A stretch of DNA of 64,000 bases from an uncultured bacterium (GTDB lineage Bacteria; Hydrothermota; UBA3073; NMUJ01; CBEVQO01): assembly GCA_965552055.1 (NCBI GenBank), contig CBEVQO010000005.1, positions 13,373 through 77,372 on the forward strand. The letters run 5' to 3'. The notes beneath the pieces were generated by a model. That model was given only the letters and a program-made list of their open reading frames with translations, did not search any database and was not told the DNA's origin. The first letter of the stretch is position 1, and each line of letters begins with the position of its first letter. Below are positions 2,414-49,200 of this stretch, one piece after another. The translations under genes and the position numbers were made by a program.

Positions 2414-2521
2414 ATTTTTAGCCCCGCCTCCCTATCCCCACCGCCCTCGTGCACACCCCTCCTTTCAGTCGGGGTGTTGACTCACAACCCGTATGTAATA
2501 AGCTCGGCTACGCCTCGCATT
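2414..2521 (-). repeat. Intergenic GC/G-tract-rich repeat, copy 1
   Basis: Plus-strand text atttttagccccgcctccctatccccaccgccctcgtgcacacccctcctttcagtcggggtgttgactcacaacccgtatgtaataagctcggctacgcctcgca. Shares blocks with copies at ~11218-11296, ~15680-15846 and (reverse complement) ~24161-24266. Contains inverted repeat ACACCCC/GGGGTGT (2453-2459 / 2471-2477). Confidence 0.5.
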
Positions 2522-2539
2522 AAAAATTTTAAAGCCGCT

Positions 2540-3196
2540 CTAATATTCACCTTTGTGGTGTTTTATGACTTTGCCTTCTACCATAAATATCACATCTTCA
2601 CAGATGTTTGTAGATAAATCTCCTATGCGCTCTAATGCATGAGAAATTCTCAACAAATGCAGTGAGCGCTCGATGGTAGATGGGTCCGAACACATATAAG
2701 TAATTAGCTCTCTTAAAATCTGCTCACCTAAATTATCAACAATTTCATCACTCTGGCACACTATCCTGGCCTTCTCTGTATCTTCGTTTATAAAAGAATC
2801 TATGGCTTTCTTTAACATATTTGTGGCTTCTTCAGCCATCCTTGGAATATCAATTAATGGTTTGACAGGCGGTCTTTCTATCAAAAACATGGCACTTTGT
2901 GATATATTTACTGCTAAATCGCCGATCCTCTCTAAATCGTTATTCATTTTTAAAATCATAAGAATAGTTCTTAAATTTTTTGCCTCTGGCTGATACAGGG
3001 CGATTAAATTTGTGCATAATTCATCTAATTCTATCTCAAATTCATTCATCTTTGGTTCATATTCTTCTATTACTTCTTTTAAAATTTCTTTCCTTTTTTC
3101 AATAAGTCCTTTGATTGACTTTCTAACCATATCTTCAGCCAGTCCTGCCATCTCAATTAATTTCTTTTTTAATATATTGATTTTTTCTGCAAGCAT
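2540..3196 (-). CDS. phoU: Phosphate transport system regulator PhoU
   Basis: 218 aa with two repeated halves, each carrying LERIGD (LERIGDLAVNI, LERIGDLSTNI). Sits directly downstream of pstB. Confidence 0.85.
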   Translation of the reverse strand: MLAEKINILKKKLIEMAGLAEDMVRKSIKGLIEKRKEILKEVIEEYEPKMNEFEIELDELCTNLIALYQPEAKNLRTILMILKMNNDLERIGDLAVNISQSAMFLIERPPVKPLIDIPRMAEEATNMLKKAIDSFINEDTEKARIVCQSDEIVDNLGEQILRELITYMCSDPSTIERSLHLLRISHALERIGDLSTNICEDVIFMVEGKVIKHHKGEY

Positions 3197-8026: not shown

Positions 8027-8741
8027 TTGTTTTCCTCATTAAGTAAATTGCAACATTTTCATTTTTTCTTATAGCATCTTTTATTGCTTCGATATTCTTT
8101 TCTGCTTTTATTAATGTCTTCCACGAATAAAGGTGCCAAGGTTCATGGAAATCAGAATTTGCAATATAATTGTATTTCTTTACTCCAATTGAATTAAACA
8201 AATCATCGCGATTGGCAACTTCCCAGGCATCAAACATTTCTTTGAATTTTTCCTGATTCTCCCATAAATACCATGATAGATGTTCTTTATCTTCTTTTTT
8301 CCTGTCCGGATGAGCAGCAATAACAATGGCATTTTGCTCTTTTACTTCTTTAATAATCTCTTCCACAGGTAAAGATGGTTCAACATATTCTTTTATATCT
8401 ATGGCAAGAATGTGATATAAATCACGATTATTGGTGATTTCTACTCCCGGAATTAACAGCATGTTGTATTCTTTCCATGCTCTTTTTGCTTCTTTCCATA
8501 ATGTTTTTAAATAATCCTTAAAATTTTCTTTTGTTATCGCATTTATTTGTTCTCCTTTCCTTATACGCTCTTCAAGGGTATACTTATCTAAAATATGGTC
8601 AGTTATTGAAATAACATCAAAACCATGTTTCCCGAATAGATCAACAACTTCTCTAAGTGGTAGTTTGCCGTCGCTAAATTTTGTGTGAATATGGAAATCG
8701 CAAAGCAACCAGTTCATCTCACTCACATAATTTATACACAA
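8013..8741 (-). CDS. PHP-domain metal-dependent phosphoesterase
   Basis: N-terminal CDFHIHTKFSDG (HxH metal motif), further His/Asp positions (ITDH, AAHPD, SDFHEP). Probable start at the internal Met MNWLLCDF. Confidence 0.6.
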   Translation of the reverse strand: MCINYVSEMNWLLCDFHIHTKFSDGKLPLREVVDLFGKHGFDVISITDHILDKYTLEERIRKGEQINAITKENFKDYLKTLWKEAKRAWKEYNMLLIPGVEITNNRDLYHILAIDIKEYVEPSLPVEEIIKEVKEQNAIVIAAHPDRKKEDKEHLSWYLWENQEKFKEMFDAWEVANRDDLFNSIGVKKYNYIANSDFHEPWHLYSWKTLIKAEKNIEAIKDAIRKNENVAIYLMRKTNEKR

Positions 8742-10499: not shown

Positions 10500-11176
10500 T
10501 CTTCTATTTTGTAGCCTATTCCTCTTACGCTTTTTATAAATTTCTTGGCTTTGCCTAATTTTTCTCTTAAATTCTTAATATGGACATCTACTGTCCTATC
10601 CAGAACAACTTTATCAATTCCCCATAATTTATCCAGAATCTGGTCCCTTGTAAATACCCAGCCTTTTCTTTCTGCCAGTATTTTTAGAATCCTGAATTCC
10701 GTTGGAGTTAAGTCCACTTTTTTATTTTCAACAAAGACTTCATATTTATTGAGGTCTATTACGAGGATATCACCTATTTTAATCTTTTTGCAGGTATCAT
10801 GCGGTGCTTTCCTTCTTAAGACTGCTTTTACTCTGGCAACTAACTCCCTTGGTGAGAAGGGCTTTGTCACATAATCATCTGCTCCCAGTTCCAGACCCAA
10901 AACTTTATCTGCTTCGGTAGTGCGTGCGGTAAGCATAATGATAGGAATAGATTTAAATTCATCTTTTGATTTTAGATACTTACAAACCTCAAAGCCATCC
11001 ATATCAGGAAGCATGAGATCCAAAATTATAAGGTCAGGTATCTGTGAGGATAAAAATTCGAAGAAATCTTCAGCATTCTGAAAGCATTTAACTTTAAAAC
11101 CATGCTTAGTGAGATGTAAAGATACAAGCTCTAAAATATCAGGCTCATCATCTATCACAGCTATTAATTCATTCAT
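10496..11176 (-). CDS. OmpR/PhoB-family response regulator (PhoB-like)
   Basis: Receiver domain (DDEPDIL, LDLMLPDMDGFEV, conserved Lys in YVTKPF) plus winged-helix output (LTPTEFRILKILAERKGWVFTRDQI). First gene of the phosphate cluster. Confidence 0.85.
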   Translation of the reverse strand: MNELIAVIDDEPDILELVSLHLTKHGFKVKCFQNAEDFFEFLSSQIPDLIILDLMLPDMDGFEVCKYLKSKDEFKSIPIIMLTARTTEADKVLGLELGADDYVTKPFSPRELVARVKAVLRRKAPHDTCKKIKIGDILVIDLNKYEVFVENKKVDLTPTEFRILKILAERKGWVFTRDQILDKLWGIDKVVLDRTVDVHIKNLREKLGKAKKFIKSVRGIGYKIEE

Positions 11177-11188
11177 CGCATTTCTCTA

Positions 11189-11215
11189 AACTTATTCAAT
11201 ATACAGGTATGTCAA
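11189..11215 (-). promoter_or_regulatory. sigma70-like promoter (TTGACA-N15-TAAGTT) for the Pho cluster; near-leaderless
   Basis: Minus-strand TTGACA 11215-11210 and TAAGTT 11194-11189. The ATG at 11176 lies about 12 nt after the -10 with no SD. Block is near-identical to 2372-2416. Confidence 0.45.
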
Positions 11216-11217
11216 CA

Positions 11218-11296
11218 ATTTTTAGCCCACCTCCCTATCCCCACCTCCCTATCCCCACCCCACAACCCATTGGTAATTAGCTCGCTTACGCTCGCA
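11218..11296 (-). repeat. Intergenic GC/G-tract-rich repeat, copy 2 (internal 14-bp tandem duplication)
   Basis: atttttagcccacctccctatccccacctccctatccccaccccacaacccattggtaattagctcgcttacgctcgca. Tandem 14-mer acctccctatcccc at 11229-11242 and 11243-11256. Lacks the hairpin block seen in copies 1 and 4. Confidence 0.5.
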
Positions 11297-11303
11297 TTTT
11301 TAC

Positions 11304-11331
11304 TTGACATCCTTAAAGATAAAATTATAAT
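11304..11331 (+). promoter_or_regulatory. sigma70-like promoter (TTGACA-N16-TATAAT) for the restriction-modification operon
   Basis: TTGACA 11304-11309 and TATAAT 11326-11331. The ATG at 11340 lies about 8 nt after the -10, so the AGGAG directly abutting the ATG is probably not a functional SD and the mRNA is likely leaderless. Confidence 0.5.
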
Positions 11332-11339
11332 TAAAGGAG

Positions 11340-12041
11340 ATGAATCTAAAGGAAGTTCAAAATAGACTTCAAGAAATTAAAAATAAAGGATTTGTGCCAT
11401 CTTTAAGAAGAGGAACAACAGGAATTGGATACACCTTTGAGATACTTTTTGGAATAAAGGAAAACAATATCCCAATCCCAGACATCGGCGGAAGAGTTGA
11501 AATTAAAACAATAAGAAGAGATTCGCAATCTTTAATAACATTATTTACTTTTAATAGAGGCGTCTGGCATATAAAGCAAAAAGAACTAATCAAAAAATAT
11601 GGATATGTTGATAAAAAGGGTAGATATGCATTAAAAAATACGGTTTTTTATGGCAAATCCATTCCACAAGGAATATCATTAGAAGTAGATGAAGATAAAA
11701 ACACTATTCATTTAGTTGATACGAATACAAAGAAAGTCCTTGCAACATGGGATGTTTATGTCATTGTCGGTATATTTATGACAAAATTGAGCAAATTATT
11801 ACTCGTAATAGCTGATAGAAAGAAAGAGAAAGGTAAAGAATATTTTCACTACAATGAAGCTTACCTTTTGACAGATCCCAGTGCTCGAAATTTTATAAAA
11901 GCATTTAAAAATTCCCTAATAGGCATTGATATTAGAATGCATCTAAAAGAAAGCGGAGAAGTTAGAAATAGAGGAACTGCATTCCGTATAAAAGAAAAGG
12001 ATTTATTAGAACTTTATGAAAATCGCAAGAAACTTATTTAA
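11340..12041 (+). CDS. Putative type II restriction endonuclease, MutH/MvaI/BcnI-like PD-ExK fold
   Basis: 233 aa with a candidate PD...ExK active site (IPIPDIGGRVEIKT) in a MutH-like arrangement. Stop is 2 nt before the SPPY methyltransferase gene. Confidence 0.5.
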   Translation: MNLKEVQNRLQEIKNKGFVPSLRRGTTGIGYTFEILFGIKENNIPIPDIGGRVEIKTIRRDSQSLITLFTFNRGVWHIKQKELIKKYGYVDKKGRYALKNTVFYGKSIPQGISLEVDEDKNTIHLVDTNTKKVLATWDVYVIVGIFMTKLSKLLLVIADRKKEKGKEYFHYNEAYLLTDPSARNFIKAFKNSLIGIDIRMHLKESGEVRNRGTAFRIKEKDLLELYENRKKLI

Positions 12042-13318: not shown

Positions 13319-15679
13319 TCACTCATGCTCCTCAAAGCCTTTGAGTAATTCTGCCATTTCTCTCAGTTTCTGGTCAACGAGGTAATTTACGGTATCAGGT
13401 TCATAAGTGCCATCGGGCAAAAGTTTTCCCGCTTTTACACCCGTTAGCAATTCAATGCCTTCATCAATGGTTTTTATCGCATAAATATGAAATTTGCCAT
13501 CTTCAACTGCTTTAACAACTTCTTTATTCAACATTAGATTTTTGATATTCTGATAGGGTATAATCACTCCCTGTGTGCCAGTAAGCCCTTTTGCCTTGCA
13601 TACTCTGAAAAAGCCCTCGATTTTTTCGTTAACACCTCCTATTGGCTGTATCTCACCCCATTGATTCACAGAACCTGTAACAGCGAGGTCCTGACGGATA
13701 GGCAGTCCAGATAGGCACGATAAAAGTGCGTAAAGCTCCGTGCTCGAAGCACTATCACCTTCTATTTCTTCATACATCTGCTCAAAGCATATACTCGCAG
13801 AAAGAGAAAGCGGTTTATTATGTGCATATTTGCCAGCAAGATAAGCACTCAAAATCAAAACTCCTTTGCTGTGAATAGGACCACTCATTTCAATTTCACG
13901 CTCAATGTTTAAAATGCCCTTCTTACCCATATAAACCCTGGCAGTAACACGAACAGGATAGCCAAAAGAATAATCACCGAGCTCAACAACAGTCAAACCA
14001 TTCACCTGACCTACTTTTTTGCCTTCAACATCTATAAGTAATCTGCCTCTTTTTATTTCTTCGTGTATTTTTTCTTCTATCAAATTTACCCTGTAGCGCT
14101 TTTTCTCAAGTGCCTTTTCAACATGCTCTGCCGTCACATATTTACTGCCATCCTGTTCTGCCCAGAAACTCGCTTCAGTTATCACATCAACAACTTCTAT
14201 AAATTTTGTGGATAATTTATCCTGGTCTCCCGTTAACTCCGAGCCATATTCAAGTATGCGTGCTACACCAGATGGGTCAAAATGCTTCAAATTTTTATCC
14301 CTGCATTGTTTCGCAATAAACGAAATATAAGCATCAATATGCTCCTTTGTTCTCGGCATCTCTGTATCAAAATCCGCTTTCACTTTAAACAATTTTCTGA
14401 AATCTTCATCAAATTCATGTAAAAGATGATAAAGCAAAGGTGTACCAATCAAAATAACTTTAACATTATGAGGGATGGGTTCTGGACGCAATGTAACAAC
14501 AGGTGTCTGACGCAATTCCTCACCTATATTCTCAATCCTCAACTCCTTTGTCCTTATCGCACGCTTTAAGGCATCCCATACAAATGGATTTAAAAGGGCT
14601 TCTTTCGCCGGTATTATCAAAAAGCCACCATTAGCCCTGTGAAAAGCTCCGGGTTTTATCAAAGTAAAATGAGTTACGAGATTGCCATCAACACTTTTAT
14701 ACTCAATTCTCCCAAAAAGATTATAATATGTCGGATTTGGTTCAAAAACAAGGGGTGCATGAGATAAATGTGAATTATCAACAAAAACATTAACTTTTAA
14801 GTTAAAAAGAAAATCAGGCTCCTCTTCTCCTGAAAGTGATTTTATCTTTTCAGTAAATTGTGCAAGGTATTCTTTGACACCATCAAAATATTCTTTCAAT
14901 TTCTTATATTTCTGATATTTCGCTTTAAGTTGTTTCACATATCTTCCGACCACATTTTTTACAATCCATTCATCGAGCTGTTTTATTTCTTCTCTCATTA
15001 CATCGTCAATTTCATGTAGCTTATGGAAGGTTTCGTCGAGTTTTTCCTTTATATATGCTCCTGCTTTTTCAATTTTTTCTTTTTCCTTTTTCGGAAGGGC
15101 TTCGAGTTCTTCAAGTGTATATTGTGTGCCATCTTCTTTCAGTGGCACTGCAAAAAGACCTGCAGGACGCCTTAAAACTTCAAAATTATATTTGCGGGCT
15201 TCTTTTTGTAATGATTCTAAAATTTCGGATTTCTTAGCTTCATATTTCTCTTTTATCGTATTGACTTCACGAAAATACTCATCGGATTTGAAAAAATGAG
15301 GCAATTTCTTTTTGCATGCGATTATTAATTTCTCCATATCTTCTGCAAGTTCTTTCCCTTTGCCTTTATCAAGTTCAACAAAAATAGGTTCTTCTGGCTT
15401 TTTAAAATTAAAAAGATAACAATAATCCTTTGGCGGTGGTAATTTTTTTGCGTATTCTTCTACAAATGCACGAACAGTGGAAGTCCTGCCGGTGCCAGGC
15501 AATCCCGATACAAATATGTTAAAGCCATCGGCTTTGGTCTGCAGACCAAATTTTATAGCTTCTACTGCACGCTCCTGACCAATGGTGCCGGTAAGTGGTT
15601 TGACTTCTTCAGTACTCTTAAATTTAAATTGCGAAATATCATATTTTAATCTAAGTTTATCAGCACTTAATTTTTCCAT
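13319..15679 (-). CDS. Lon-like protease (LonB/LonC-type) with degenerate P-loop
   Basis: P-loop-like GLPGTGRTS (Arg in place of the Walker A Lys) and no clear hhhhDE Walker B. C-terminal Lon protease domain with EGDSASST (Ser) and FFRVCKAKG (Lys). ORF track starts at TTG 15751, but the first 24 codons are the intergenic repeat; the likely start is ATG 15677-15679 (MEKLSADK...). Confidence 0.7.
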   Translation of the reverse strand: MEKLSADKLRLKYDISQFKFKSTEEVKPLTGTIGQERAVEAIKFGLQTKADGFNIFVSGLPGTGRTSTVRAFVEEYAKKLPPPKDYCYLFNFKKPEEPIFVELDKGKGKELAEDMEKLIIACKKKLPHFFKSDEYFREVNTIKEKYEAKKSEILESLQKEARKYNFEVLRRPAGLFAVPLKEDGTQYTLEELEALPKKEKEKIEKAGAYIKEKLDETFHKLHEIDDVMREEIKQLDEWIVKNVVGRYVKQLKAKYQKYKKLKEYFDGVKEYLAQFTEKIKSLSGEEEPDFLFNLKVNVFVDNSHLSHAPLVFEPNPTYYNLFGRIEYKSVDGNLVTHFTLIKPGAFHRANGGFLIIPAKEALLNPFVWDALKRAIRTKELRIENIGEELRQTPVVTLRPEPIPHNVKVILIGTPLLYHLLHEFDEDFRKLFKVKADFDTEMPRTKEHIDAYISFIAKQCRDKNLKHFDPSGVARILEYGSELTGDQDKLSTKFIEVVDVITEASFWAEQDGSKYVTAEHVEKALEKKRYRVNLIEEKIHEEIKRGRLLIDVEGKKVGQVNGLTVVELGDYSFGYPVRVTARVYMGKKGILNIEREIEMSGPIHSKGVLILSAYLAGKYAHNKPLSLSASICFEQMYEEIEGDSASSTELYALLSCLSGLPIRQDLAVTGSVNQWGEIQPIGGVNEKIEGFFRVCKAKGLTGTQGVIIPYQNIKNLMLNKEVVKAVEDGKFHIYAIKTIDEGIELLTGVKAGKLLPDGTYEPDTVNYLVDQKLREMAELLKGFEEHE

Positions 15680-15846
15680 TTTTAGCCCCGCCTCCGCTGT
15701 CCCCACCTTCCCGATTAAGTCAGCCCACTCCTTACCCTTCTTTAAACGCAATCAGAAGATAAAGCGTAAACAACCCGAATAACCCACATCCCCGTAATGG
15801 GCTGACATATCAACCCTTATGTAATGTGCTCGGCTGCGCCGAGCAA
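15680..15846 (-). repeat. Intergenic GC/G-tract-rich repeat, copy 3 (divergent middle, perfect 7-bp palindrome)
   Basis: tttttagccccgcctccgctgtccccacc ... caacccttatgtaatgtgctcggctgcgccgagca. Shares 5' and 3' blocks with copies 1, 2 and 4; the middle carries inverted repeat GTCAGCCCA/TGGGCTGAC. Abuts the Lon-like start codon directly (GGGGCTAAAAATG). Confidence 0.45.
15828..15844 (-). terminator. Hairpin GCTCGGC-tgc-GCCGAGC just downstream of the membrane-protein gene stop
   Basis: Perfect 7-bp stem, 3-nt loop, 4 nt after the stop at 15849. Only a weak U-rich tail follows, so terminator function is uncertain; it is also the conserved 3' block of the repeat. Confidence 0.3.
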
Positions 15847-15848
15847 TA

Positions 15849-17042
15849 TTACTCTTTCTTCTCTTCCTCTTTCTTCTCCTCTTTCTTTTCTTCTTCCTTC
15901 TTTTCCTCTTCCTCTATCGGCAATTCTTCTTCGGGCTTCTCTTCAAGCAGGTCTTTTTCATCTTTAATCTTAACAAGGACAACATAAAAGAGAGTTTGAC
16001 CGGCACTCCATGTTGCTAAACCATATCCCGCTACAAACATGCCAATGAAGTGGAAGGATAAACCAGCGAGAAAGCCACCAATCCAGTCAGCCCAGGTAAG
16101 AGGCTTCATCCACTCAACGCCCCACAGCAATACAGGAAGATGGAACACTTTTGCACAAAGTATCTCAGCCCATGGTACTCTCGGACAGCGCGGCAGATAC
16201 CACAAACCATTATTCCACATCACTTCCCACCATCTATAAGCACCGAGCTCCGTATATCTCGTGCCAGACCATAAGTTGAGTGCCCAGTGCATCAAAATGA
16301 GTGCCTTCTTAACCAGCCAGCCAAGAATATACACACCTGCAAACGCTGCAAATGCTATGAAAATCTGCCACAGAACTGTACGCCATGTCTGGTCATTCAA
16401 CACACTGAATACCTCAAAAAGAGTATCAAATGCATCGCTCTCCGTAGTAGCAGTAACAGCAGGAGATACTATAAGCGATAAAAACCATACTATCGCAAGG
16501 TAAACAACAAATAGCGCTCCAAATGCTATCGGGATAAAGAGCAAACCCGTTATTATCTGTCCAGCATAGGGAATCCTTCCAACGAGTCCACAGAGAAAAC
16601 CAACAAGAATCAGGAAGCCAATGAGAAATGTAAGCACAAGAGGAGCACCTATCGTGCCTTTCCACTGCTTCATCGCAAATCTTATAGCCTCTGTTACTTC
16701 GTAAAATTCATTGCCCTTTAACTGCTCAAAGGTCATCTTGCTGATAGCACAAACCGTAGTAAGCAGTATGAATACTCCAGCCGATACCCCTATAACCCAT
16801 ATCACCCAGCTCCATGGTCGAAGATGAGTGCCAACTCCCTTTACAGGTATTATCACCCACGGAATATACCTGAACTCACGCCAGACCTCTTTCCATGTCC
16901 AGCCCGAGGTAACATACGCTACATAGGCCAGTATAGAGTACACAACCGTCGCACTCAGTATCCCCAGGAACGCGATCCAGATTTTTTTAGCAGAGAACCC
17001 AAGACGAGGCGCCCTGACTACATCTGCAAAACCCCACTTCAT
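15849..17042 (-). CDS. Trp-rich polytopic membrane protein with acidic/basic (EEKK)n C-terminal tail
   Basis: Multiple hydrophobic helices; 26 Trp in 397 aa; tail ...EEKKEEEKKEEKKEEEKKE. Begins 12 nt after the trpS stop, so probably co-transcribed. Confidence 0.5.
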   Translation of the reverse strand: MKWGFADVVRAPRLGFSAKKIWIAFLGILSATVVYSILAYVAYVTSGWTWKEVWREFRYIPWVIIPVKGVGTHLRPWSWVIWVIGVSAGVFILLTTVCAISKMTFEQLKGNEFYEVTEAIRFAMKQWKGTIGAPLVLTFLIGFLILVGFLCGLVGRIPYAGQIITGLLFIPIAFGALFVVYLAIVWFLSLIVSPAVTATTESDAFDTLFEVFSVLNDQTWRTVLWQIFIAFAAFAGVYILGWLVKKALILMHWALNLWSGTRYTELGAYRWWEVMWNNGLWYLPRCPRVPWAEILCAKVFHLPVLLWGVEWMKPLTWADWIGGFLAGLSFHFIGMFVAGYGLATWSAGQTLFYVVLVKIKDEKDLLEEKPEEELPIEEEEKKEEEKKEEKKEEEKKE

Positions 17043-17054
17043 AATACCTCCTTT

Positions 17055-18029
17055 TTACCACATTCCTATTGCTTCCTTAACTTCCTTTAAAACCTCAGAT
17101 GCAACACTCCTTGCACGCTTCGAACCTTCAAAAATTATATCCTTAACATCTTCATCTTTTAAACTTTTAGCCCTCTCTCTAATCTCTCTGAAAAACTCCG
17201 ATAACTTTTGGGATGCCTCTTCCTTACACGCTACACAACCTCTTTTACCCTCCCTGCATTCCTTCTCAATGATACTTAAATTCTCTGCATTAACAAGGTT
17301 GTGATAGGCGAAAACAACACAACCTTCGGGATGACCAGGGTCATTTTTTCTTATCTTCTGAGGGTCTGTAAAAGCCTGCATAACTTTTTCTTTTATAACT
17401 TCAGGCTCATCTCTCACCAGTATATAATTTTTCAGCGATTTTGACATCTTTTTACCGTCAATCCCCGGTACTTTCGGTGACCTCGATAGAAGTGGCTGTG
17501 GCTCAGGGAATATCTTTTTATAAAGCGAGTTAAACCAGCGAGCAATTTGACGGGTTAATTCAAGATGAGCAAGCTGGTCTTCACCCACAGGTACTTTATT
17601 CGGCTTATACATCAAAATATCAACCGCCTGTAAAACAGGATACCCCAGTAACCCATAATTAACTTTTTCCCTCAAACCATAATCCCTTATCATCTCTTTG
17701 AGTGTTGGATTTCTTTCGAGCCAAGGCACAGGTACAAACATCGAAAAAATTAAATGCAATTCACAATGCTCGGGAACAAGCGATTGCAAAAAAATTACAG
17801 ATTTTTCAGGAGATATACCGGCAGAAAGCCAGTCCTTAGTCATTTCAATTATATTTTCCTTCAATTTAGATGTATCTTTATAATCTGTTGTCAATGCATG
17901 ATAATCTGCCAGCAAAAAATAACATTTATATTCATCCTGAAGTTTCAGCCAGTTACTTAAAGCACCAAAATAATTACCAATGTGAAGCTTGCCTGTTGTA
18001 CGCATACCAGATAAAATATTCTCTTTCAT
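17055..18029 (-). CDS. trpS: Tryptophan--tRNA ligase
   Basis: Class I signature HIGN (GKLHIGNYFG) and KMSKS (KKMSKSLKN); length 324 aa. Confidence 0.9.
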   Translation of the reverse strand: MKENILSGMRTTGKLHIGNYFGALSNWLKLQDEYKCYFLLADYHALTTDYKDTSKLKENIIEMTKDWLSAGISPEKSVIFLQSLVPEHCELHLIFSMFVPVPWLERNPTLKEMIRDYGLREKVNYGLLGYPVLQAVDILMYKPNKVPVGEDQLAHLELTRQIARWFNSLYKKIFPEPQPLLSRSPKVPGIDGKKMSKSLKNYILVRDEPEVIKEKVMQAFTDPQKIRKNDPGHPEGCVVFAYHNLVNAENLSIIEKECREGKRGCVACKEEASQKLSEFFREIRERAKSLKDEDVKDIIFEGSKRARSVASEVLKEVKEAIGMW

Positions 18030-18264
18030 TTCAATAAGATTTCGAGTTTTTTAGCAAGATATAAGAGCATTAAAAACAAAGCAAGCAGAATTATCAATAA
18101 TTTGTAGTTGGGCGAAGGACTTTTTCTTTCTGAAAATAATCTTCTCATTATCATACTATAAATTATCGTCAAATTACAAGGATGTCAAGAATAAAATGAA
18201 AAATTTGAATTGACATTTTTGTGAAATAAACATAATGGTTAGTGCGTTATATTAAAAAGGGGGT

Positions 18265-19107
18265 GTGATGAGGTATGTATTGTTAGGAGTGATATGTTTG
18301 GGACTGGTGGTAGGATGTGCTCGTAAGTGGATTTCGGATGAAGAAGCGATAAGGGAACTCATAGATGAGCTCGGCTATCTGCTGGGTGCGGGCGAATATT
18401 ACGGTAAGGAAACAGGGGATACCACTGTTACTCAAGGTAAGGGATATGCCGGGGTGTTCTGGTACAGAAGTGTCGATAGTGTGAGCGTAGATCTTAAAGT
18501 GAATATAAATGGCGATTCCGCATGGGTTGAAATAGAAAGAATGATTTACGGAGTATTCCACAGGTTTCCTTTCGATACGATGCCAGCAGGTACTCTGGTT
18601 GATAAGCCAAAAGACCTAAAAGATAAAATCACAAGATATGCTATTTTCAGGAAGACAGGTAAGCCGAGGCGTCATCGTGGATGGTGTTTGCATAAATTGT
18701 CGGGAGCTATGGCAAAATCACAACTTGGAGGTCCCGATATAAAGATTGATAGTGTGAAGTTGATATTGAAAGGCGATACGATAACGATAAGAGAGCCCTT
18801 TGAGTTTACAGATACTGTGAATATTATTGAATGCCAGCAAAATGAAGAAATTGAAGTTTATGCCTATGTATCTCCCGATACTGTTCCTGTTCTTGTATTT
18901 TTACATTTTCCAGGTAATCAGCGCCACATAAGGAGGAGATGCATGATAATAAGTGATGGGGTATTTTATGGTGAGTGCAAGGTAGGCAGGAAGGGTTATG
19001 GAAGATTGGGAGTAGATGTGATATGGAGTCCAACATTGTTTGAAGATGATGAGAGTACTTATCCTTACTGTTCGAGGGCATGGATTATAAATATAAGGTG
19101 CAAGTGA
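18265..19107 (+). CDS. Hypothetical lipoprotein
   Basis: Signal peptide with lipobox LVVGC (MMRYVLLGVICLGLVVGCAR); no recognisable catalytic motif. Confidence 0.5.
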   Translation: MMRYVLLGVICLGLVVGCARKWISDEEAIRELIDELGYLLGAGEYYGKETGDTTVTQGKGYAGVFWYRSVDSVSVDLKVNINGDSAWVEIERMIYGVFHRFPFDTMPAGTLVDKPKDLKDKITRYAIFRKTGKPRRHRGWCLHKLSGAMAKSQLGGPDIKIDSVKLILKGDTITIREPFEFTDTVNIIECQQNEEIEVYAYVSPDTVPVLVFLHFPGNQRHIRRRCMIISDGVFYGECKVGRKGYGRLGVDVIWSPTLFEDDESTYPYCSRAWIINIRCK

Positions 19108-19140
19108 GGAATAAAATTTTGAGATTTTTAAAATTTTAGC

Positions 19141-19169
19141 TTGACAAATTGATATTTTGAATATTATAT
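19141..19169 (+). promoter_or_regulatory. rRNA operon promoter P1
   Basis: agcTTGACAaattgatattttgaatattatat: -35 TTGACA at 19141-19146 with a TAtnaT-like -10 15-17 nt downstream. Confidence 0.5.
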
Positions 19170-19207
19170 AAGTGGGTTCTTTGGATTGAAAAAGTGAAAA
19201 AAGAAGC

Positions 19208-19237
19208 TTGACAAATTGGGATTTTTGATAATATAAT
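19208..19237 (+). promoter_or_regulatory. rRNA operon promoter P2 (tandem duplicate of P1)
   Basis: agcTTGACAaattgggatttttgataatataat: TTGACA 19208-19213, TATAAT-like 19231-19237. The ~67-bp unit agcttgacaaattg...ttctttg is repeated from P1. Confidence 0.55.
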
Positions 19238-19261: not shown

Positions 19262-20818
<1,557 letters not shown>

Positions 20819-20851
20819 TTTCTCTCCGGGCAGCACACTTTATTTTTTTAT

Positions 20852-20923
<72 letters not shown>

Positions 20924-20924
20924 T

Positions 20925-20996
20925 GGGGATGTAGCTCAGTGGGAGAGCGCCTGCTTTGCAAGCAGGAGGTCAGGGGTTCGAATCCCCTCATCTCCA
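20925..20996 (+). tRNA. tRNA-Ala (anticodon TGC)
   Basis: Acceptor GGGGAUG/CAUCUCC with G3:U70, anticodon loop UUUGCAA, T-loop GGTTCGAAT. Separated from tRNA-Ile by 1 nt. CCA not encoded. Confidence 0.9.
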
Positions 20997-21040
20997 TGGG
21001 AAGCGATTTAGTTCTTTGACAATCAAGGCAGATGAGCATC

Positions 21041-24047
<3,007 letters not shown>

Positions 24048-24087
24048 GATGCTCATCTGCCTACTTTGTAATTAACCTGTTTTTAAC

Positions 24088-24157
24088 GCCCCGACCGCCT
24101 TCTTAATATTGTCCCTTAGAGGACCTGTGTAAGAATAAGGGGTCGGGGCTTTTTTTT
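24088..24157 (+). terminator. Rho-independent terminator of the rRNA operon (long nested hairpin plus T8)
   Basis: gccccgacc (24088-24096) pairs with ggtcggggc (24141-24149), with inner complementary segments ttctta/taagaa and gtcc/ggac, followed by 8 T at 24150-24157. Confidence 0.6.
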
Positions 24158-24160
24158 ATT

Positions 24161-24266
24161 ACGAGCGATAGCGAGTTTATTACATAAGGGTCTTTTGTCA
24201 CACCCCGACCGAAGGGAGGGGTGTGCACATGGGAAGGTGGGGACTGGGAGGAGGGGCTAAAAATAA
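24161..24266 (+). repeat. Intergenic GC/G-tract-rich repeat, copy 4 (opposite genomic orientation)
   Basis: Reverse complement reads tttttagcccctcctcccagtccccaccttcccatgtgcacacccctcccttcggtcggggtgtgacaaaagacccttatgtaataaactcgctatcgctcgt, colinear with copy 1. Oriented toward the downstream plus-strand promoter. Confidence 0.5.
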
Positions 24267-24273
24267 TTTTTAC

Positions 24274-24300
24274 TTGACTTTGTGACTTTCCTGTTATAAT
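24274..24300 (+). promoter_or_regulatory. sigma70-like promoter (TTGACT-N15-TATAAT) for the downstream envelope gene cluster
   Basis: TTGACT 24274-24279, TATAAT 24295-24300. The first ORF start (GTG 24307) lies 7 nt after the -10. Confidence 0.45.
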
Positions 24301-24306
24301 AAATAG

Positions 24307-24678
24307 GTGTTGCAAATTCTTTTAATATCTGTAACTATTGAATGTTATGTATGGGGTCAGGTTCGTAATCCCGGTGCTTATGAATTATCTCCCTCTTCTA
24401 ATTTAATTGAGTTAATATCGCGTGCAGGTGGTCCCACAGATTATGCTGACCTTTCTCGTATAAAGGTACTGAGACACGATAAAGTTTATAAAATCAATTT
24501 GAAAAAATTTTCCCGTGATGCTTTTTTTATTCTTGAACAGGGTGATGTGGTAATAGTCCCCCCTAACAGGACATATAAAATTAAAAAATATCTCGAGAAT
24601 ATGATGATACTTATATCTTTTCTTGACATCTTGAGATTTGGTTTAGAACTTTACTGGAGGTTATATGTCGCTAAATGA
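24307..24678 (+). CDS. SLBB-domain protein related to polysaccharide export (Wza-like); possibly 5'-truncated
   Basis: VWGQVRNPGAYELSPSSNLIELISRAGGPTDYADLSRIKVLR...GDVVIVPP matches the SLBB/polysaccharide-export motif. No signal peptide or lipobox; GTG start abuts the promoter. Confidence 0.45.
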   Translation: MLQILLISVTIECYVWGQVRNPGAYELSPSSNLIELISRAGGPTDYADLSRIKVLRHDKVYKINLKKFSRDAFFILEQGDVVIVPPNRTYKIKKYLENMMILISFLDILRFGLELYWRLYVAK

Positions 24679-33645: not shown

Positions 33646-33719
33646 ATAATTTTAATTGGGATATGTAAAAGTCAATAAATAATAAATGTTGACATACTTT
33701 TTATTTCATTAAAATATGG

Positions 33720-43141: not shown

Positions 43142-43172
43142 TAAAAATTGATAAAAATTTTTAATTTTTAGC

Positions 43173-43199
43173 TTGACAAAGTCAAAATTTGATTAAAAT
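43173..43199 (+). promoter_or_regulatory. sigma70-like promoter (TTGACA-N15-TAAAAT) for the giant surface-protein gene
   Basis: agcTTGACAaagtcaaaatttgatTAAAAT, then SD AGGAGG at 43206-43211 and ATG at 43217. Confidence 0.5.
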
Positions 43200-43216
43200 A
43201 GATAAAGGAGGTTGTT

Positions 43217-46200
43217 ATGAGGTGGTTAATTTTTATGTTTTTAACTGCAAATCTGTGGGGGGCTGAATACTGGTGGAGGATTGAGGTCGTTGATTCTGGG
43301 GTTCAGCGTGGTCAATATACAAGTGTTGTTCTTGATGATAGTGGTAGACCCTGGATTTCTTATTATGATGCCAATAATGGGTGGTTGATGTGTGCGCACT
43401 GGACAGGGACTGCATGGGATATTGATACGGTTGATGATAGTGGCAATGTTGGTATGTATTCGAATATTGCTCTTGATAAAGCAGGTTATCCTCATATCGT
43501 TTACTTTGATGATGGGAATACAAGGTTAAAGCATGCGTGGTGGACTGGTGCTTTTTGGAAAACAGAGACCGTGAATGACCCTAACTCAAATGATTATGGA
43601 TACTGGTGCGATATTGCTATAGATTCTTTAAATCGCATCTGGGTATCGTACTATGATGCTGATAACAAAAGGCTTATGTGTGCACGCAAAGTAGGAGCTG
43701 TGTGGGATACTATTTATATCGTAGTTGAAGCATTTGGACCTCCGGTCGGGGAATACTCATCAATTTGTATTGATACATCTAATAATCCCCATATATCCTA
43801 TTATCATCAGATTAATGGGTTATCTCATGCATGGTGGGATGGTTCAAAATGGCAGGCTCAGCAGGTTGATTTTGCAGGCGGTTATTACACAAGCATAATT
43901 GCAAGCGAATGTGATACACTGCATATATCTTATTACAATCCTTCTTCGCGGGATTTAAAATATGCGAAAGGTTATTATTCTTCGGGTAGCTGGGGATGGA
44001 CGACGCAGGTAGTTGATACACAGGGAGATGTTGGCAAATGGACGAGCATAGCTGTCTGTGGAAATTCACCTCATATATCCTATTATGATGCTACAAATTT
44101 ATGTCTCAAATATGCACATTTTGAGAATGGTAGCTGGGAGATAGAAGTTGTTGATTCGCCGAAAGTCGGTGAATACACATCAATTGCACTTGATACAAAT
44201 GGCTTACCCTGTATATCCTATTATGACGGAGGTAGTGAATGGCTTAAATTTGCAAGATTGCTTATAAGACCAGAGGTTGATTCAACTTCACCTCTTCATA
44301 ATGAAGTTAATGTATCGCGTGCAACTCAGATAAATGTCTGGTTCTCAAAGGATATTGAATCTGCAACAATAAATAGTGCGAGTTTTAAAGTAATTGGTTC
44401 ACAATCGGGTGAAAGGAAGGGCACGATAACTTACGATTCTAATGAACGCAAAGCAACTTTTACATTGAATGCAGGTGAAACTTTCTATACCGGTGAGAAG
44501 GTGACAGTAATTTTAACAGATTCTATTAAGTCAGTGGATGGTGCACCACTTGTGCCTTATGTGTTTGAATTTACGATAAAGGCAGCCGAAGGGATTGCAG
44601 AGTTTAGTAATGAGGTAAGGTATAGTGTATTGGGTACGCCTGTTGATATAGAGGTTTGTGACCTTGACCTTGATGGTGACCCAGACATTGTTACGCTTTC
44701 ACAGGATACGATAATGATATGGCGTAATGATGTTGATAGTCTGGTACCTGTGGATACTATTCCCTCGCCTTCTTCACAGTACTGCATTGCGATATTAGAC
44801 CTTGATTTGGATGGTTTACCTGATATTGTGGTTGATTCAACTCCATCGAGTGCTCCTTATAGTATAAAGTTTTACAAAAATCAAGGTGGATTGAATTTCG
44901 CCTGGGGTTTTCGTTGTCAAACTGCTTATGGTGTAACAGATATGTTTGTGTCTGACTTTGATGGAGATGGCGACTTTGATATTGCTGCACTGGAATTAAC
45001 TCAGGTTGAGATTCTTTTAAATGAAGGATTTTTTAATTTTACATCGAGTGATACGATTGACCTTACATTTTCGCACAATAAATTATATGGTGCTGATTAT
45101 AATAATGATGGGTTGATTGACCTTGCTGTTACTGCCGCAGCGGGCACTCCCGGTTATGATGTTCTTGCAAATGAAGGTGAAGGCAAATTTAAGCACATTG
45201 GAACAATAACTTTAAGTCAGGGTGTTAAGGATATTATTGCATCTGATTTCGACAATGATTACAATGCGGATAATGCTTTGACGGGCGATGATACACTTAT
45301 TATTTCAGAAGGCAATGGTGATTTTAGTTTTGCACCGGAAGATGATTATGTTGCTACTGGTTCAAATTTTCTTACTTCCGGTGATTTTGATGCAGATGGT
45401 GATATAGACCTTGCGGTTAGTGGGAATGTTACAGGTGGTGATACTTTATTTATATTTTTGAATGATAATGCTAGTTTTGATTCTGTTCACAAATTTTCTG
45501 CAACTGCGATAGAAAGAATTGTGAGTGCAGATTTTAACCTTGATAGCACAATTGATATTGCATCTATTCATTCTGGTGGAATATTATCAATATTTTACAA
45601 TACGCCCGATACATTTCCACCTCCGCCTCCTGAAAGTTTAACTGCAAATGGTGGTTCTCCCTCTCCATGGGATTCCAGTGCTCGATTTGTAATTGACTGG
45701 ATAAATCCTAATGACCCATCGGGGATACTTTTTGCCAATTATAAGATAGGTTCGAGACCTGTGAGTGACTGGGATACAACAGGTCATATGTCTGCACCGT
45801 ATACTCATCCCAAAGATACGATTTACTGGAAAGGGGAAGGGATAGATACATTGTGGGTGTGGCTTGTTGATGGTAACCTTAACACCTCGAAAGATTCTGT
45901 TTCATTTGTGCTTTTAAGAAGGGATACAACACCTCCTCCTGAGCCACAAAAGATTTCTCCATCTGATGGAATATGGGTTGATAGTGCAAGGATAAAATTT
46001 ATGTGGCATTCTGTTGTTGATTCTCTATCAGGGACAATGAGTTATGGGATAGTGCTTGAATATGATGATGTAATAGGTCCTCCTTATATTAGAACAGCGG
46101 GCGATTTGAGTGGCACAACTTACTTTTATACATGTCCTGAGACTGCTGTTTACTGGAGAGTATTTGCAAAGGATTCGGCAACAAACAGGAGTCCGCAATC

Positions 46201-49200
46201 ATTCTGGTGTGTAAAAATAGACACAACTCCTCCAAATAAATTTTATGTTATTTCTCCCGATGGTGTATGGTTGAGGAAACCTCCTTATACATTTATCTGG
46301 CATAGTGCAAAAGACCACTGGTCAGGTGTTGAAAGTTATAAATTGAGAGTGTGGAGAGAAGGTTTTGCTGCTAGCAATTGGTCCGGTATAACTGATACCT
46401 CTTACATTGTGTTTGGTTTGCCTGGTTTTGCCGAAACTACATACTGGTGGTGTGTTATAGCGTATGATTCTGCTGGAAATTATGTGTATAGTGATACAGG
46501 GATTTTCTGGACAGATACTACAATTTTGCCGCCTTCTAATCTCACGATAAATGGTAAAAATCCGAACGACTGGACCAATGATAGTGTATTTACATTGAAC
46601 TGGACAAATCCTTCTGATTATTCCGGTATCGTTAGAGCATTATATAAGATTGGCAATAGACCTTCTTCTGATTATGATACAACTGGTTCTCTCACAGGAA
46701 TTCCTCCTGTAAGTATTATCTGGCGGGATGAAGGTGTAGAAACATTATGGCTGTGGCTCGAAGATAAGGCAGGTAATGTTGATTACACAAAAAATGCATT
46801 TGCAATAATAAGAAGGGATATAACTCCGCCTCAATCTTTTACTCAGATTTCACCTGTAAATAATTTCTGGCTAAATACCATTAATCCTCGCCTTATATGG
46901 CACAGCACTATGGATACTTTGTCGGGCTTGGCTTATTATACGATAAATGTTGATACAGTTCAAACATTTTCAACGAAAATAATTTGTGATACTGTTTCGG
47001 ATACCATTTACAATGCAAATCTATTTGAAGACGCGTTTTACTGGTATGTTGAGGCATGGGATTCTGCTGGTAATGTATGTTCTACTTTTGTGTGGAATTT
47101 CAAAATAGATACAACCCATCCTCCCAAACCTGTTTTAATATCTCCTCCTGATGGCTCATGGAACGGCAAATATGCTCATTTTGTATGGCATAAAGTTGAA
47201 GATTACTGGTCTGGTCTAGCTGCTTATCGCTTAAACATTGATACGAATGCTTTGATGCCAAATCCTCTGACATTTTCACTTACAGATACAGAGACAACAA
47301 TTGTGCTTACTCATGAAGGCAAAACTTATTACTGGATGGTGGAAGCTGAAGATTCGGCATTTAATATATCGCAAAGTTTGGTATGGACTTTCAAACTTGA
47401 CACAACAGTTCTTGCACCGATTAATTTAATTGCAAATGATAGTTCTCCGTCACCGTGGCAAAGGAGTTCTATGTTTGTTATTAACTGGCAAAATCCATCT
47501 GATTCCGCTGGAATAAAGTTTGCATTATACAAACTTGGCACAGGACCCAGTAATAACTGGGATACCACAGGTACGATGCATTTACCACCCGATACGATTT
47601 ACTGGCAGGGCGAGGGCAAAGAAACTTTATGGGTATGGCTTTGCGATAGTGCAGGCAATGTTAATTACCATAATCGCTCTTTTGTGTTGTTAAGAAGAGA
47701 TACAACTCCTCCTTTTGCATTTTCAAAAATAAGACCCCAGGATAATGCGTGGATAAGGGTTGTTAAGCCTTCTCTTATCTGGCATAGCACTCAAGATTCT
47801 CTATCGGGTCTGAGGATTTATCGTGTTGCTGTAGATAAAGATATGACTCCTCCTTTTATGATTGATTTTGTTTTGCGAGGTACTCTATATGTTACACCCC
47901 ATTTACCTGAGACGATACTTTACTGGGCAGTCGTAGCAGTTGATTCTGCAGGTAACTTTAAAGAAGCTGATGCGGATACAAAAGTATGGTGGAAGATGAA
48001 AATAGATACAACTCCTCCTGATACAGTCCATCCAGTTTATCCTGTATCTAATCAATGGACGAGAGGTGGATTTATGTGGCGTAGTGCTAAAGATTACTGG
48101 TCAGGGATTAGATTTTATCATTTTGTGATAGATACAGTTTATCCATTCACTCCCAGTCCCATAAAGGATACAGTTTGCAGGGATACCGTGATATTTATCA
48201 AAGGACTTTCTGAGCGGAATTATTACTGGAAAGTTGTAGCATTAGATTCTGCTTTTAATGGAGGTGCTGGTGTTGTTCATCAATGTCGAGTTGATACCAC
48301 GCCACCGGATAGCGTTAAATTAATCTCTCCTGAGAACCTTTCTTACACGAATGATATACATTCTGTATTTACATGGGATACAGGCTATGATGCGCGTTCA
48401 GGTGTTATGGGCTATATTTTCTGGGATTCTTCACTTGCATATGGTGAAAAAATTGATACTCTTATCTTAGGCGTATTTAACACATCTTATAAGCCTTTAA
48501 AAGGTTTAAAGGAGGGCTGGCATTGCTGGGCAGTTGTAGCAATGGATTCAGCCTACAATGTTAGTGATGGTCATTATCCTTATTCTGTGCATTTGTTATG
48601 TGTGGATACTACTCCTCCTGAGTCCGCAATTGCAACTTCGCCTCTTTATGTTGATAGCCTTGTATTTGTTGTGCAATGGAGTAAAGGTAAAGATACTTTA
48701 TCGGGCATCACAGATACTTATAAATTGAGATATTCTACAGATTTAGTTTCATGGTATGATACGGCTGTTACGGGTACCGCATTTATTTTCAAAGGAGAAG
48801 ACCAGACAAAATATTACTTTGAGGTGCTTTCTCGGGATTATGCTGGCAATTTTGAGCGCATCACAGGAGTGCCTGAATGCTCAACCTATGTTGATACTAC
48901 ACCGCCTCAGCAGGTTCAGTTAATCTCACCTGAAGGCTGGATTAAAGAATTATCACCTGTTTTAATATGGCACAAAGCAAATGACTTTACAGGGATAGCA
49001 GAATATTATGTGCAGCTAAGTAAAGATATGGGTTTCGATACCATTATTTTTTCGGATACCGTTGCAGATACATTTGCGGTGGTAGGTTTAAATTTAATGG
49101 AAAATGTTAAGTACTACTGGCGAGTTAGGGCAAAAGACAACGCAGGCAATGTAAACATGTGGTCAGGTTATAATATGTTTAAAGTGGATACATCATCGCC

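Follow-up and report, generated by a model that had tools for sequence, protein, structure and literature searches.

A strain-variable 14-bp tandem duplication in the G-tract end of a mosaic intergenic repeat found beside promoters of a Hydrothermota bacterium

We analyzed a 64,000-nt stretch of DNA (hereafter the window, with positions counted from its first letter) from an uncultured bacterium of the Hydrothermota lineage (assembly GCA_965552055.1, contig CBEVQO010000005.1), which contains four copies of one intergenic repeat. The C-rich strand of copies 1-3 is on the plus strand, and copy 4 is inverted. Copy 2 carries an exact tandem duplication of 14 bp. The four copies and the two units of the duplication are located as follows:

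2414..2530, minus strand: copy 1, short-hairpin subfamily (hairpin ACACCCC...GGGGTGT), between phoU (2540-3196) and rnfC, with one GCCTCCCTATCCCC unit
11218..11303, minus strand: copy 2, minimal subfamily (L and R blocks, no hairpin), between the divergent promoters of a response-regulator gene and an MvaI/BcnI-like gene
11229..11242, minus strand: unit 1 of the exact tandem 14-mer, ACCTCCCTATCCCC on the plus strand and GGGGATAGGGAGGT on the strand of the downstream gene
11243..11256, minus strand: unit 2 of the exact tandem 14-mer, again ACCTCCCTATCCCC, from the sequence and from comparison with four other assemblies
15680..15855, minus strand: copy 3, long-hairpin subfamily (stem GTCAGCCCA/TGGGCTGAC), with the L block abutting the lonC ATG (15679)
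24153..24264, plus strand: copy 4, short-hairpin subfamily, with the G-rich strand on plus, between the rRNA operon terminator and the SLBB/GNVR promoter; a putative quadruplex-forming sequence (PQS) is at 24231-24256

The interpretation that we favor, with a probability of roughly 0.7, is that of a strain-specific slippage duplication within the G/C-tract end module of a lineage-specific mosaic repeat, which resembles BOX elements, bacterial interspersed mosaic elements (BIMEs) and miniature inverted-repeat transposable elements (MITEs) and occupies a permissive gap upstream of -35 boxes.

On the plus strand, copy 2 reads TTTTTAGCCC, then ACCTCCCTATCCCC twice, then ACCCCACAACCC. Tandem Repeats Finder (TRF) reported the interval 11226-11259, with a period of 14, 2.4 copies and 100% matches. 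With up to two mismatches allowed, the 14-mer occurs three times in the window versus 0.20 expected occurrences, the third match being the single unit GCCTCCCTATCCCC in copy 1 (2426-2439). An earlier reading of this DNA, made from the letters alone (the sequence-only reading), had described the tandem duplication in copy 2 and the single unit in copy 1, and both are confirmed by direct reading and by TRF; the G-strand strings that it quoted for copies 2 and 4 are correct as well.

The duplication is polymorphic among closely related strains. The copy 2 orthologues in four other assemblies (NCBI, ENA and two JGI contigs; L001/L027, L002/L028, L006 and L013/L029, where L numbers label contigs and loci outside the window) have one unit, reading GTGGGGTGGGGATAGGGAGGTGGGGCTAAAAATTG, versus two in the window. 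Compared to these four assemblies, the window shows a net insertion of 13 nt, i.e., the extra unit minus one G in the GGGG run beside CTAAAAA (GGGCT in the window); the one-unit allele reads GTGGGGTGGGGATAGGGAGGTGGGGCT on the G strand. The response-regulator protein is identical in the NCBI metagenome-assembled genome (MAG) GCA_964419125.1, the ENA assembly, a JGI contig and a Logan contig. In the approximately 23 kb that were aligned, the same-species contigs are 98-99% identical in DNA, i.e., they differ by 1-2% substitutions. Copy 1 differs from its orthologue by a one-G indel within a G run (the NCBI MAG is 1 nt shorter at 2439), copy 3 likewise by a one-G indel in a G run, and copy 4 by a 1-nt indel that is within the element but outside its G/C runs. 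Overall, indels are concentrated in the elements, with 4 of about 11 events falling into about 2% of the compared sequence; the substitution rate of the elements is unremarkable. The slippage and the variation of unit count that had been proposed from the letters alone are thus borne out by the strain comparison, with respect to the unit number of copy 2 and to the 1-nt G-run indels of copies 1 and 3. The insertion would be explained most simply by slipped-strand mispairing, offset by 1 nt, of GGGG runs placed at 14-nt intervals. As in a variable number tandem repeat (VNTR), the unit number at one locus varies among closely related strains; unlike in an expression-altering VNTR, the tract lies upstream of the -35 box, and both the -35/-10 spacer and the promoter-proximal unit are unchanged. 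A second tandem-duplication polymorphism, in this case coding, was observed in a PHP-domain gene (8427-8508), where a 21-nt tandem repeat (TRF 8469-8508) is the site of 57 in-frame nucleotides (21+34+2) that the window has in excess of the ENA and JGI contigs.

Alternatively, misassembly of the window could have produced both the second unit and the 1-nt differences in G runs. The two-unit state is found in the window alone, versus one unit in the four other assemblies, and G-run length is the typical homopolymer error. Conversely, a clean, in-register duplication of 13 nt is not a homopolymer-type error and is atypical for sequencing errors in general; few homopolymer differences are seen elsewhere in the approximately 23 kb despite abundant A/T runs; and the strains truly differ, by the substitutions mentioned above. 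We give very little credence to an artefact.

The repeat has a modular anatomy. On the C-rich strand, the L block ATTTTTAGCCCCnCCTCCCnnTCCCCACCnnCCC is followed by an optional middle module, by ACAACCCnTATGTAAT and by the R block GCTCGCTTACGCTCGCATTAAAAAT. Two diverged 14-nt units, e.g., CCCCGCCTCCCTAT and CCCCACCGCCCTCG, which are identical at 10/14 positions, make up the L block, and it is in this G/C-tract end of copy 2 that the duplication sits. The middle module is absent, or is a 35-nt short hairpin, or a long hairpin of about 100 nt, and the copies are distributed among three subfamilies:

minimal subfamily, L and R blocks, ~80 nt: copy 2, L007, L010, L012, L018
short-hairpin subfamily, ACACCCC...GGGGTGT: copies 1 and 4, L005, L014
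long-hairpin subfamily, GTCAGCCCA...TGGGCTGAC, ~170 nt: copy 3, L008, L009, L011, L019, L020

A strict L-block pattern was found in 16 metagenome contigs, 15 of which come from one JGI metagenome (Ga0190367), the sixteenth being a chance match. Where the Ga0190367 contigs overlap the window, the identity is 98-99%, indicating the same species; after removal of the orthologues of the window copies, this same-species metagenome contributes to a count of at least 13 distinct loci in the three subfamilies. Short-read contigs of the same species often end within or at the edge of the repeat (L003/L029, L004 and L027 at their starts; L010, L012 and L019 at their ends), as would be expected if a multi-copy element interrupts assembly; the metagenome census of copies is therefore an undercount. 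The elements are small (80-175 bp), non-coding, multi-copy and dispersed, as expected for MITEs. In L017 (1057-1300), a solo L block runs into about 120 nt of unrelated sequence and has no R block, and in L009 (2620-2647), an additional solo R block is located about 50 nt past a complete element; the element is therefore mosaic. In the long subfamily, the pairwise identity is 97% for the L block and the left stem versus 66% for the hairpin interior; thus, the ends are constrained, as in MITE- and BOX-type elements, and the interior drifts. The R block is 73% conserved and alternates between direct-repeat and palindromic forms.

Several known classes of elements were considered and rejected. 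The hairpin modules are optional and there is no GTAG head, which does not agree with repetitive extragenic palindromic (REP) sequences or BIMEs. Subterminal hairpins of the REP type or of the IS200/IS605 insertion sequence (IS) type are not consistently present. A role as a terminator was dismissed because no stem followed by a T-run is found inside the elements, and copy 4 follows a separate, canonical rRNA terminator: the 23S gene is followed by a hairpin and T-run (~24085-24155) and then by copy 4. At gathering scores, Rfam 15 detected only rRNA and tRNA in the whole window and no family for the repeat, and a search with copy 3 at E-values up to 10 produced only matches at chance level.

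Most of the element ends lie next to promoter-like sequences. The sites adjacent to copies 2 and 4 are as follows:

11189..11215, minus strand: promoter-like site of the response-regulator gene, TTGACA (11215-11210), 15-nt spacer, TAAGTT (11194-11189), ATG at 11176; a consensus match only
11304..11331, plus strand: divergent promoter-like site at the R end of copy 2, TTGACA (11304-11309), 16-nt spacer, TATAAT, with the ATG of the MvaI/BcnI-like gene at 11340
24274..24300, plus strand: promoter-like site at the L end of copy 4, TTGACT, 15-nt spacer, TATAAT, GTG at 24307

The G-rich L end points toward a start codon in 10/13 copies, with the start codon 22-54 nt away, and TTGAC(A/T) follows CTAAAA after 4-5 nt in five copies, 8-9 nt in two, and 11 and 16 nt in the other two copies where the distance could be measured. 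The R end, which is not G-rich, points toward a start codon in 9/14 cases, and TTGACA is located 6-14 nt past GCAT at the R end of copy 2, L008, L010, L011 and L019. Where an end faces the 3' end of a gene, TTGACA is absent (R end of copies 1 and 3; L end of L007, L014 and L018); hence, the -35 boxes belong to the genes and not to the element, and an IS-like outward promoter with the -35 box inside the element was rejected for the same reason. In three of these cases (L007, L014 and L018), the G-rich end is the one that abuts a gene 3' end, and no promoter is present. No common function links the genes on the L side: they encode RnfC, an OmpR-family response regulator, LonC, an SLBB/GNVR polysaccharide-export pair and an MnmG-like protein.

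Copy 2 exactly occupies the 88 nt between the divergent -35 boxes at 11215-11210 (minus strand) and 11304-11309 (plus strand). In element-free divergent promoters of the window, the -35 boxes are placed back to back, 8-29 nt apart, at 33675(-)/33689(+), 38049(-)/38058(+) and 62027(-)/62057(+). The modal spacer is 15 nt long, being found in 11/21 promoter-like sites that precede long open reading frames (ORFs) across the window (TTGACA-N15-TAnnnT; e.g., 34809(+) and 55921(-)), and a TTGA(A/T) motif often directly precedes the -10 hexamer. Start codons are often located only 3-7 nt past the -10 box, and from this spacing many mRNAs appear to be leaderless or nearly so. Both ends of the element present an outward TAAAAAT at approximately -38 to -45. 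UP elements are A/T-rich and extend over -38 to -59; TAAAAAT resembles the proximal UP subsite, and the distal UP position is G/C-rich here. This placement of the A-tract by the element ends puts the G block at -45 to -75 on the non-template strand. Measured from the inferred transcription start of the response-regulator gene, the duplicated tract spans approximately -47 to -74, directly upstream of the -35 box, in agreement with the approximate range of -45 to -80 that the sequence-only reading had given for the G tracts. Beyond the element, copies 1 and 2 share another 53 nt that are 94% identical (2372-2424 and 11176-11228, both on the minus strand). This stretch covers both promoter boxes (-35 and -10) and reaches the start codons of rnfC and the response-regulator gene, which are unrelated to each other; it looks as if a promoter had been copied along with the repeat.

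The nearly fixed position of the L end raises the question of a protein-binding module, in which the L block GGTGGGGAnnGGGAGGnGGGGCTAAAA and/or the R-block motif GCGAGC-N4-GCGAGC would be an operator in a class-I-like position, and the copies would define a regulon. A highly conserved motif of 27 nt lies at a nearly fixed distance from the -35 box (4-9 nt in eight copies), its non-G positions are invariant, the R block of several copies is a direct repeat with a 10-nt period, and one copy is located upstream of the gene for an OmpR-family regulator. Regulators of the OmpR/PhoB family bind direct repeats with this geometry. The downstream genes, however, have no functional theme; the identity between sites is 85-100%, which is far above the usual values for operators and fits a recent spread; L007, L014 and L018 carry the motif at a distance from promoters; the R block is only 73% conserved and switches between forms; and relatives that have the same genes lack the element. 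A transcription-factor regulon is accordingly not supported: despite the fairly fixed position, the genes have nothing in common, and relatives do not carry the motif. We regard an operator as quite improbable.

The position of the G tracts also invites a reading in terms of G-quadruplexes (G4s). We searched both strands of the whole 64 kb, rRNA included, for canonical PQS with the regular expression (G3+ N1-7)x4. The only matches in the window are in copies 1, 2 and 4, and none was found in the 60%-GC rRNA operon. The G-strand string of copy 4 is GGGAAGGTGGGGACTGGGAGGAGGGG (24231-24256), and that of copy 2 extends over 11226-11268 on the minus strand. G4Hunter, applied with a 25-nt window, a threshold of 2.0 and 50 shuffles as a control, scored copies 1-4 at 2.24, 2.48, 1.8 and 2.16, respectively; outside the rRNA genes, only copies 1, 2 and 4 scored at least 2.0, and no region reached this value in the fifty shuffles. 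Folding of the single G strand with the G4 term of ViennaRNA (37 C, DNA parameters) predicted a three-tetrad G4 in the minimum free energy (MFE) structure of copies 1, 2 (both alleles) and 4, with a predicted gain of 6-13 kcal/mol; for the G strand of copy 3, no G4 appeared in the same fold. Folding at 70 C was discarded, because with the DNA parameters it yielded implausible structures made of isolated pairs. In all six copies of the long subfamily, copy 3 included, GCG replaces one GGG, so that only three tracts of G3+ are left (in copy 3, GGGAAGGTGGGGACAGCGGAGGCGGGG) and the PQS pattern is absent. The G4 potential that had been proposed from the letters alone therefore holds for copies 1, 2 and 4 by PQS, G4Hunter and folding, but does not extend to the whole family; by these predictions, the G4 motif is frequent in the repeat and is not its defining feature.

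A promoter switch could be built on such a motif: the G block would fold on the non-template strand at -45 to -75, aided by heat and by negative supercoiling between divergent promoters, and would raise or lower transcription, with the number of 14-bp units tuning the effect. Apart from the predictions above, several observations are compatible with this model. The differences between copies fall mostly on loop positions of the L block, and in the long subfamily the L block is, as noted, far better conserved than the hairpin interior. Since rRNA GC content relates to growth temperature, an rRNA of ~60% GC in a genome of ~36% GC suggests a thermophile. Potential G4s (PG4s) are enriched near bacterial gene starts (PMC12563890), and effects of promoter G4s in E. 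coli depend, in the summary given in PMC4692102, on location and strand. Other observations argue against it. Six of 13 copies, i.e., the long subfamily, have three tracts and no predicted G4, and yet their L block is equally conserved. The non-G positions of the L block are invariant as well (the A after GGGG, the T in GGTGGGG, and CTAAAA), which a purely structural constraint would not demand. Three copies have the G block at a gene 3' end without a promoter, and the R end is as often adjacent to a promoter as the L end. The one-unit allele, like the two-unit allele, has five or more G3+ tracts; because each already exceeds four, the duplication alters G4 competence little. The G4 prediction applies to a single strand and not to duplex DNA, the downstream genes are unrelated, and the element is missing from the closest relatives that were found. 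What had been claimed as a G-rich element upstream of promoters is thus real with respect to adjacency, but its role as a dedicated G4 switch is weakened by the three-tract subfamily, the R-end adjacency, the promoterless copies and the unrelated genes; taken together, these observations show the G block as a terminal module of a dispersed repeat that is found beside promoters. Such a switch is unlikely in our estimation, and an effect of a G4 on transcription, if there is any, would be at most modulatory.

Copy 3 bears on yet another possibility, namely, that the repeat acts as transcribed RNA, with the G strand donating a Shine-Dalgarno (SD) sequence or forming an RNA G4, and the C strand providing an anti-SD-like tract or a Rho-loading (rut) tract. 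This copy lies between two co-directional genes and has no promoter-like site of its own; hence, it is almost certainly transcribed there, and its GGAGG may serve as an SD. The GGAGG from the repeat is 11 nt upstream of the lonC ATG at 15679. The lonC ORF in our list and in the gene calls of other assemblies extends into the repeat (15680-15751; 810, 808 or 817 aa); the likely start is, however, the ATG at 15679 (MEKLSADKLRLKYD...), and the longer versions probably represent a start miscall from the open frame that runs through the G-rich block. As judged from this spacing, copy 3, inside an apparent operon, probably supplies the lonC SD. In addition, CACCTCC on the C strand matches the 16S 3' end GATCACCTCCTTT, and hairpin modules exist. 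In most copies, however, the flanking promoters point outward on both sides, so that these copies should not be transcribed; there is no Rfam match and no terminator after the element; the stems are invariant, with no covariation, and the hairpin interior has no conserved pairing in the six long copies on either strand. Consensus folding of these six copies, on both strands, revealed no covariation and hence does not support an RNA gene. A general role as an RNA element is highly improbable.

The repeat appears to be restricted to this lineage. The strict L-block pattern had 0 matches in 185,579 species-representative genomes, and in viral contigs the L-block and R-block patterns gave either only chance matches in GC-rich DNA or none. 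No close representative of the organism exists: in the species genomes, RnfC is at most 56% identical, and the next relatives in a large protein collection are 63-65% identical. The named RnfC homologues are mostly from candidate division WOR-3 / Ca. Stahlbacteria, which hints at an affiliation with that division. Neither an L nor an R block was found in ~48 kb around rnfC of the closest relatives, nor in ~48 kb in more distant ones (48-65% RnfC identity overall), and rnfC of one relative (L034) has an ordinary, element-free promoter, TTGACA-N16-TATAAT.

Returning to slippage within a dispersed repeat, we suggest the following scenario. The 28-bp tract would be a recent replication-slippage duplication mediated by CCCC/GGGG runs spaced 14 nt apart, the G-tract module being a slippage hot spot. 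In a compact genome with many leaderless genes, almost no DNA is dispensable other than the few bases that directly precede a -35 box or directly follow a stop codon, and copies of the repeat, spread by transposition or recombination, would persist at these positions. The element ends would be compatible with promoter function, as the outward A-tract could plausibly stand in for a proximal UP subsite. It should be noted that a number of observations weigh against this scenario. The promoters are consensus matches only. No empty site was seen: every other same-species assembly carries the element at each of the four window loci. The copies are not flanked by a consistent target-site duplication; the terminal inverted match that they share is only 7 nt long and AT-rich (ATTTTTA/TAAAAAT), with the L and R blocks otherwise unrelated; and no autonomous partner element or transposase was identified. 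Given the lack of an empty site and of a clear target duplication, and an inverted match of just 7 nt, the repeat is at most putatively mobile. The near-invariant L block might just as well be maintained by a role in the host, e.g., in protein binding or G4 formation, and homopolymer errors may account for the 1-nt differences in G runs if the window was assembled from long reads. An exact-protein look-up of PhoU, a 397-aa ORF and the 636-aa GNVR protein, for further orthologous loci or empty sites, returned no record.

In a more speculative version, the repeat would be a mobile promoter-upstream cassette with UP-like ends, in which a block that folds into a G4 or i-motif at high temperature, under negative supercoiling from divergent transcription, senses supercoiling or temperature, or acts as an insulator, and slippage of the units provides heritable tuning. 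The cassette would have reached unrelated and mostly leaderless genes of an uncultured thermophile, possibly a member of WOR-3; this we consider rather improbable. If the G block rides a selfish or neutral repeat, the family would be an example of repeats that gather in the only dispensable DNA of a compact, leaderless-rich genome. As a passenger, it would also illustrate how G-tract modules mutate by slippage, and the tracing of all PQS of an AT-rich segment to one family would call for caution with genome-wide statistics of G4s near promoters. Conversely, should the block modulate transcription, the copies would amount to ten or more naturally occurring replicate promoters for testing G4 function in a thermophilic bacterium, with the one- and two-unit alleles and the GCG variant without the fourth tract as built-in controls.

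Several other features of the window were recorded. The rRNA operon (19266-24049) comprises 16S, tRNA-Ile(GAT), tRNA-Ala(TGC) and 23S; a 5S gene was not detected in the 64 kb at the Rfam gathering score. The 16S gene has unusual features, e.g., GGAGGTAGCAG instead of the usual GGAGGCAGCAG. A promoter block with AGCTTGACAAAnT occurs three times, twice in tandem upstream of 16S (19113-19235) and once upstream of a 2737-aa ORF (43145-43200; start near 43211), and these blocks carry an A/T-rich, UP-like upstream sequence that includes TTTTTAGC. The cumulative GC skew has a minimum near 18 kb (~17000-19200), where gene orientation flips from mostly minus to mostly plus; this could be a replication origin or a mere gene-strand bias. 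The G-rich strand of all four copies of the repeat is the presumptive leading strand, but this is confounded with gene direction. Three tandem repeats of ~890 nt at 45815-48105, which are 63-84% identical over the matched stretches, are presumably paralogous genes or domains in a row.

The repeat has no sequence in common with the known systems to which we compared it, and its architecture differs from theirs as well. The BOX elements of S. pneumoniae and the BIMEs of E. coli are modular intergenic repeats, often located beside promoters or between operons; in BOX, one internal module, the 45-nt boxB, is present in a variable tandem number, and BIMEs have alternative hairpin modules. Like these, the present element is a short, non-coding, dispersed and modular intergenic repeat with conserved ends and a variable interior. 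Unlike in BOX, with which it shares no sequence similarity, the variable tandem unit is a terminal 14-nt G-tract and not an internal 45-nt boxB. REP sequences and BIMEs are built on an imperfect palindrome of 20-40 nt with a GTAG-type head and an associated gene for a REP-associated tyrosine transposase (RAYT); here, there is no palindrome with a GTAG head, and neither a RAYT nor another partner gene is known for the repeat. The Correia elements of Neisseria are MITEs with terminal inverted repeats of 26 bp and TA target duplications. The element is similar to them in being ~80-175 bp long, multi-copy, species-restricted and intergenic, in lying beside promoters of unrelated genes, and in forming subfamilies that differ in internal segments; it is different in its inverted match of only 7 AT-rich nucleotides, in the lack of a clear duplication and of an empty site, and in having the -35 boxes outside the element.

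With respect to G-rich repeats, the E. coli HPG1 and HPG2 families consist of near-identical PQS motifs (16 and 7 members, respectively) that are found only in intergenic regions and can adopt either fold, hairpin or G4; operons lie downstream of half of the HPG1 members, and the HPG motifs are mostly near gene 3' ends, between convergent or tandem genes, with one between divergent genes (PMC5100583). Both these and the present repeat are intergenic PQS families, but most copies here are promoter-proximal, and many are between divergent genes. In Xanthomonas and Nostoc, simple sequence repeats (SSRs) of the GGGNATC and GGGGA(C/T)T types have a consensus that forms G4s in vitro; these SSRs are pure arrays of a 7-nt unit with 2-26 units, mostly transcribed and under-represented between divergent ORFs (PMC4692102). 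The similarity lies in G-rich tandem units that are over-represented in non-coding DNA and vary in number among loci and strains; in contrast to these SSRs, the 14-nt unit described here belongs to a larger mosaic element, is present in 2-3 units and is frequent between divergent promoters. Finally, like the promoter-proximal PQS described near bacterial gene starts (PMC12563890) and in a survey of Deinococcales/Thermales (PMC6200779), those of the window are intergenic, near gene starts and in a probably thermophilic host. Whereas these surveys deal with scattered motifs, mostly in GC-rich genomes, every PQS in this 36%-GC segment comes from one repeat family.

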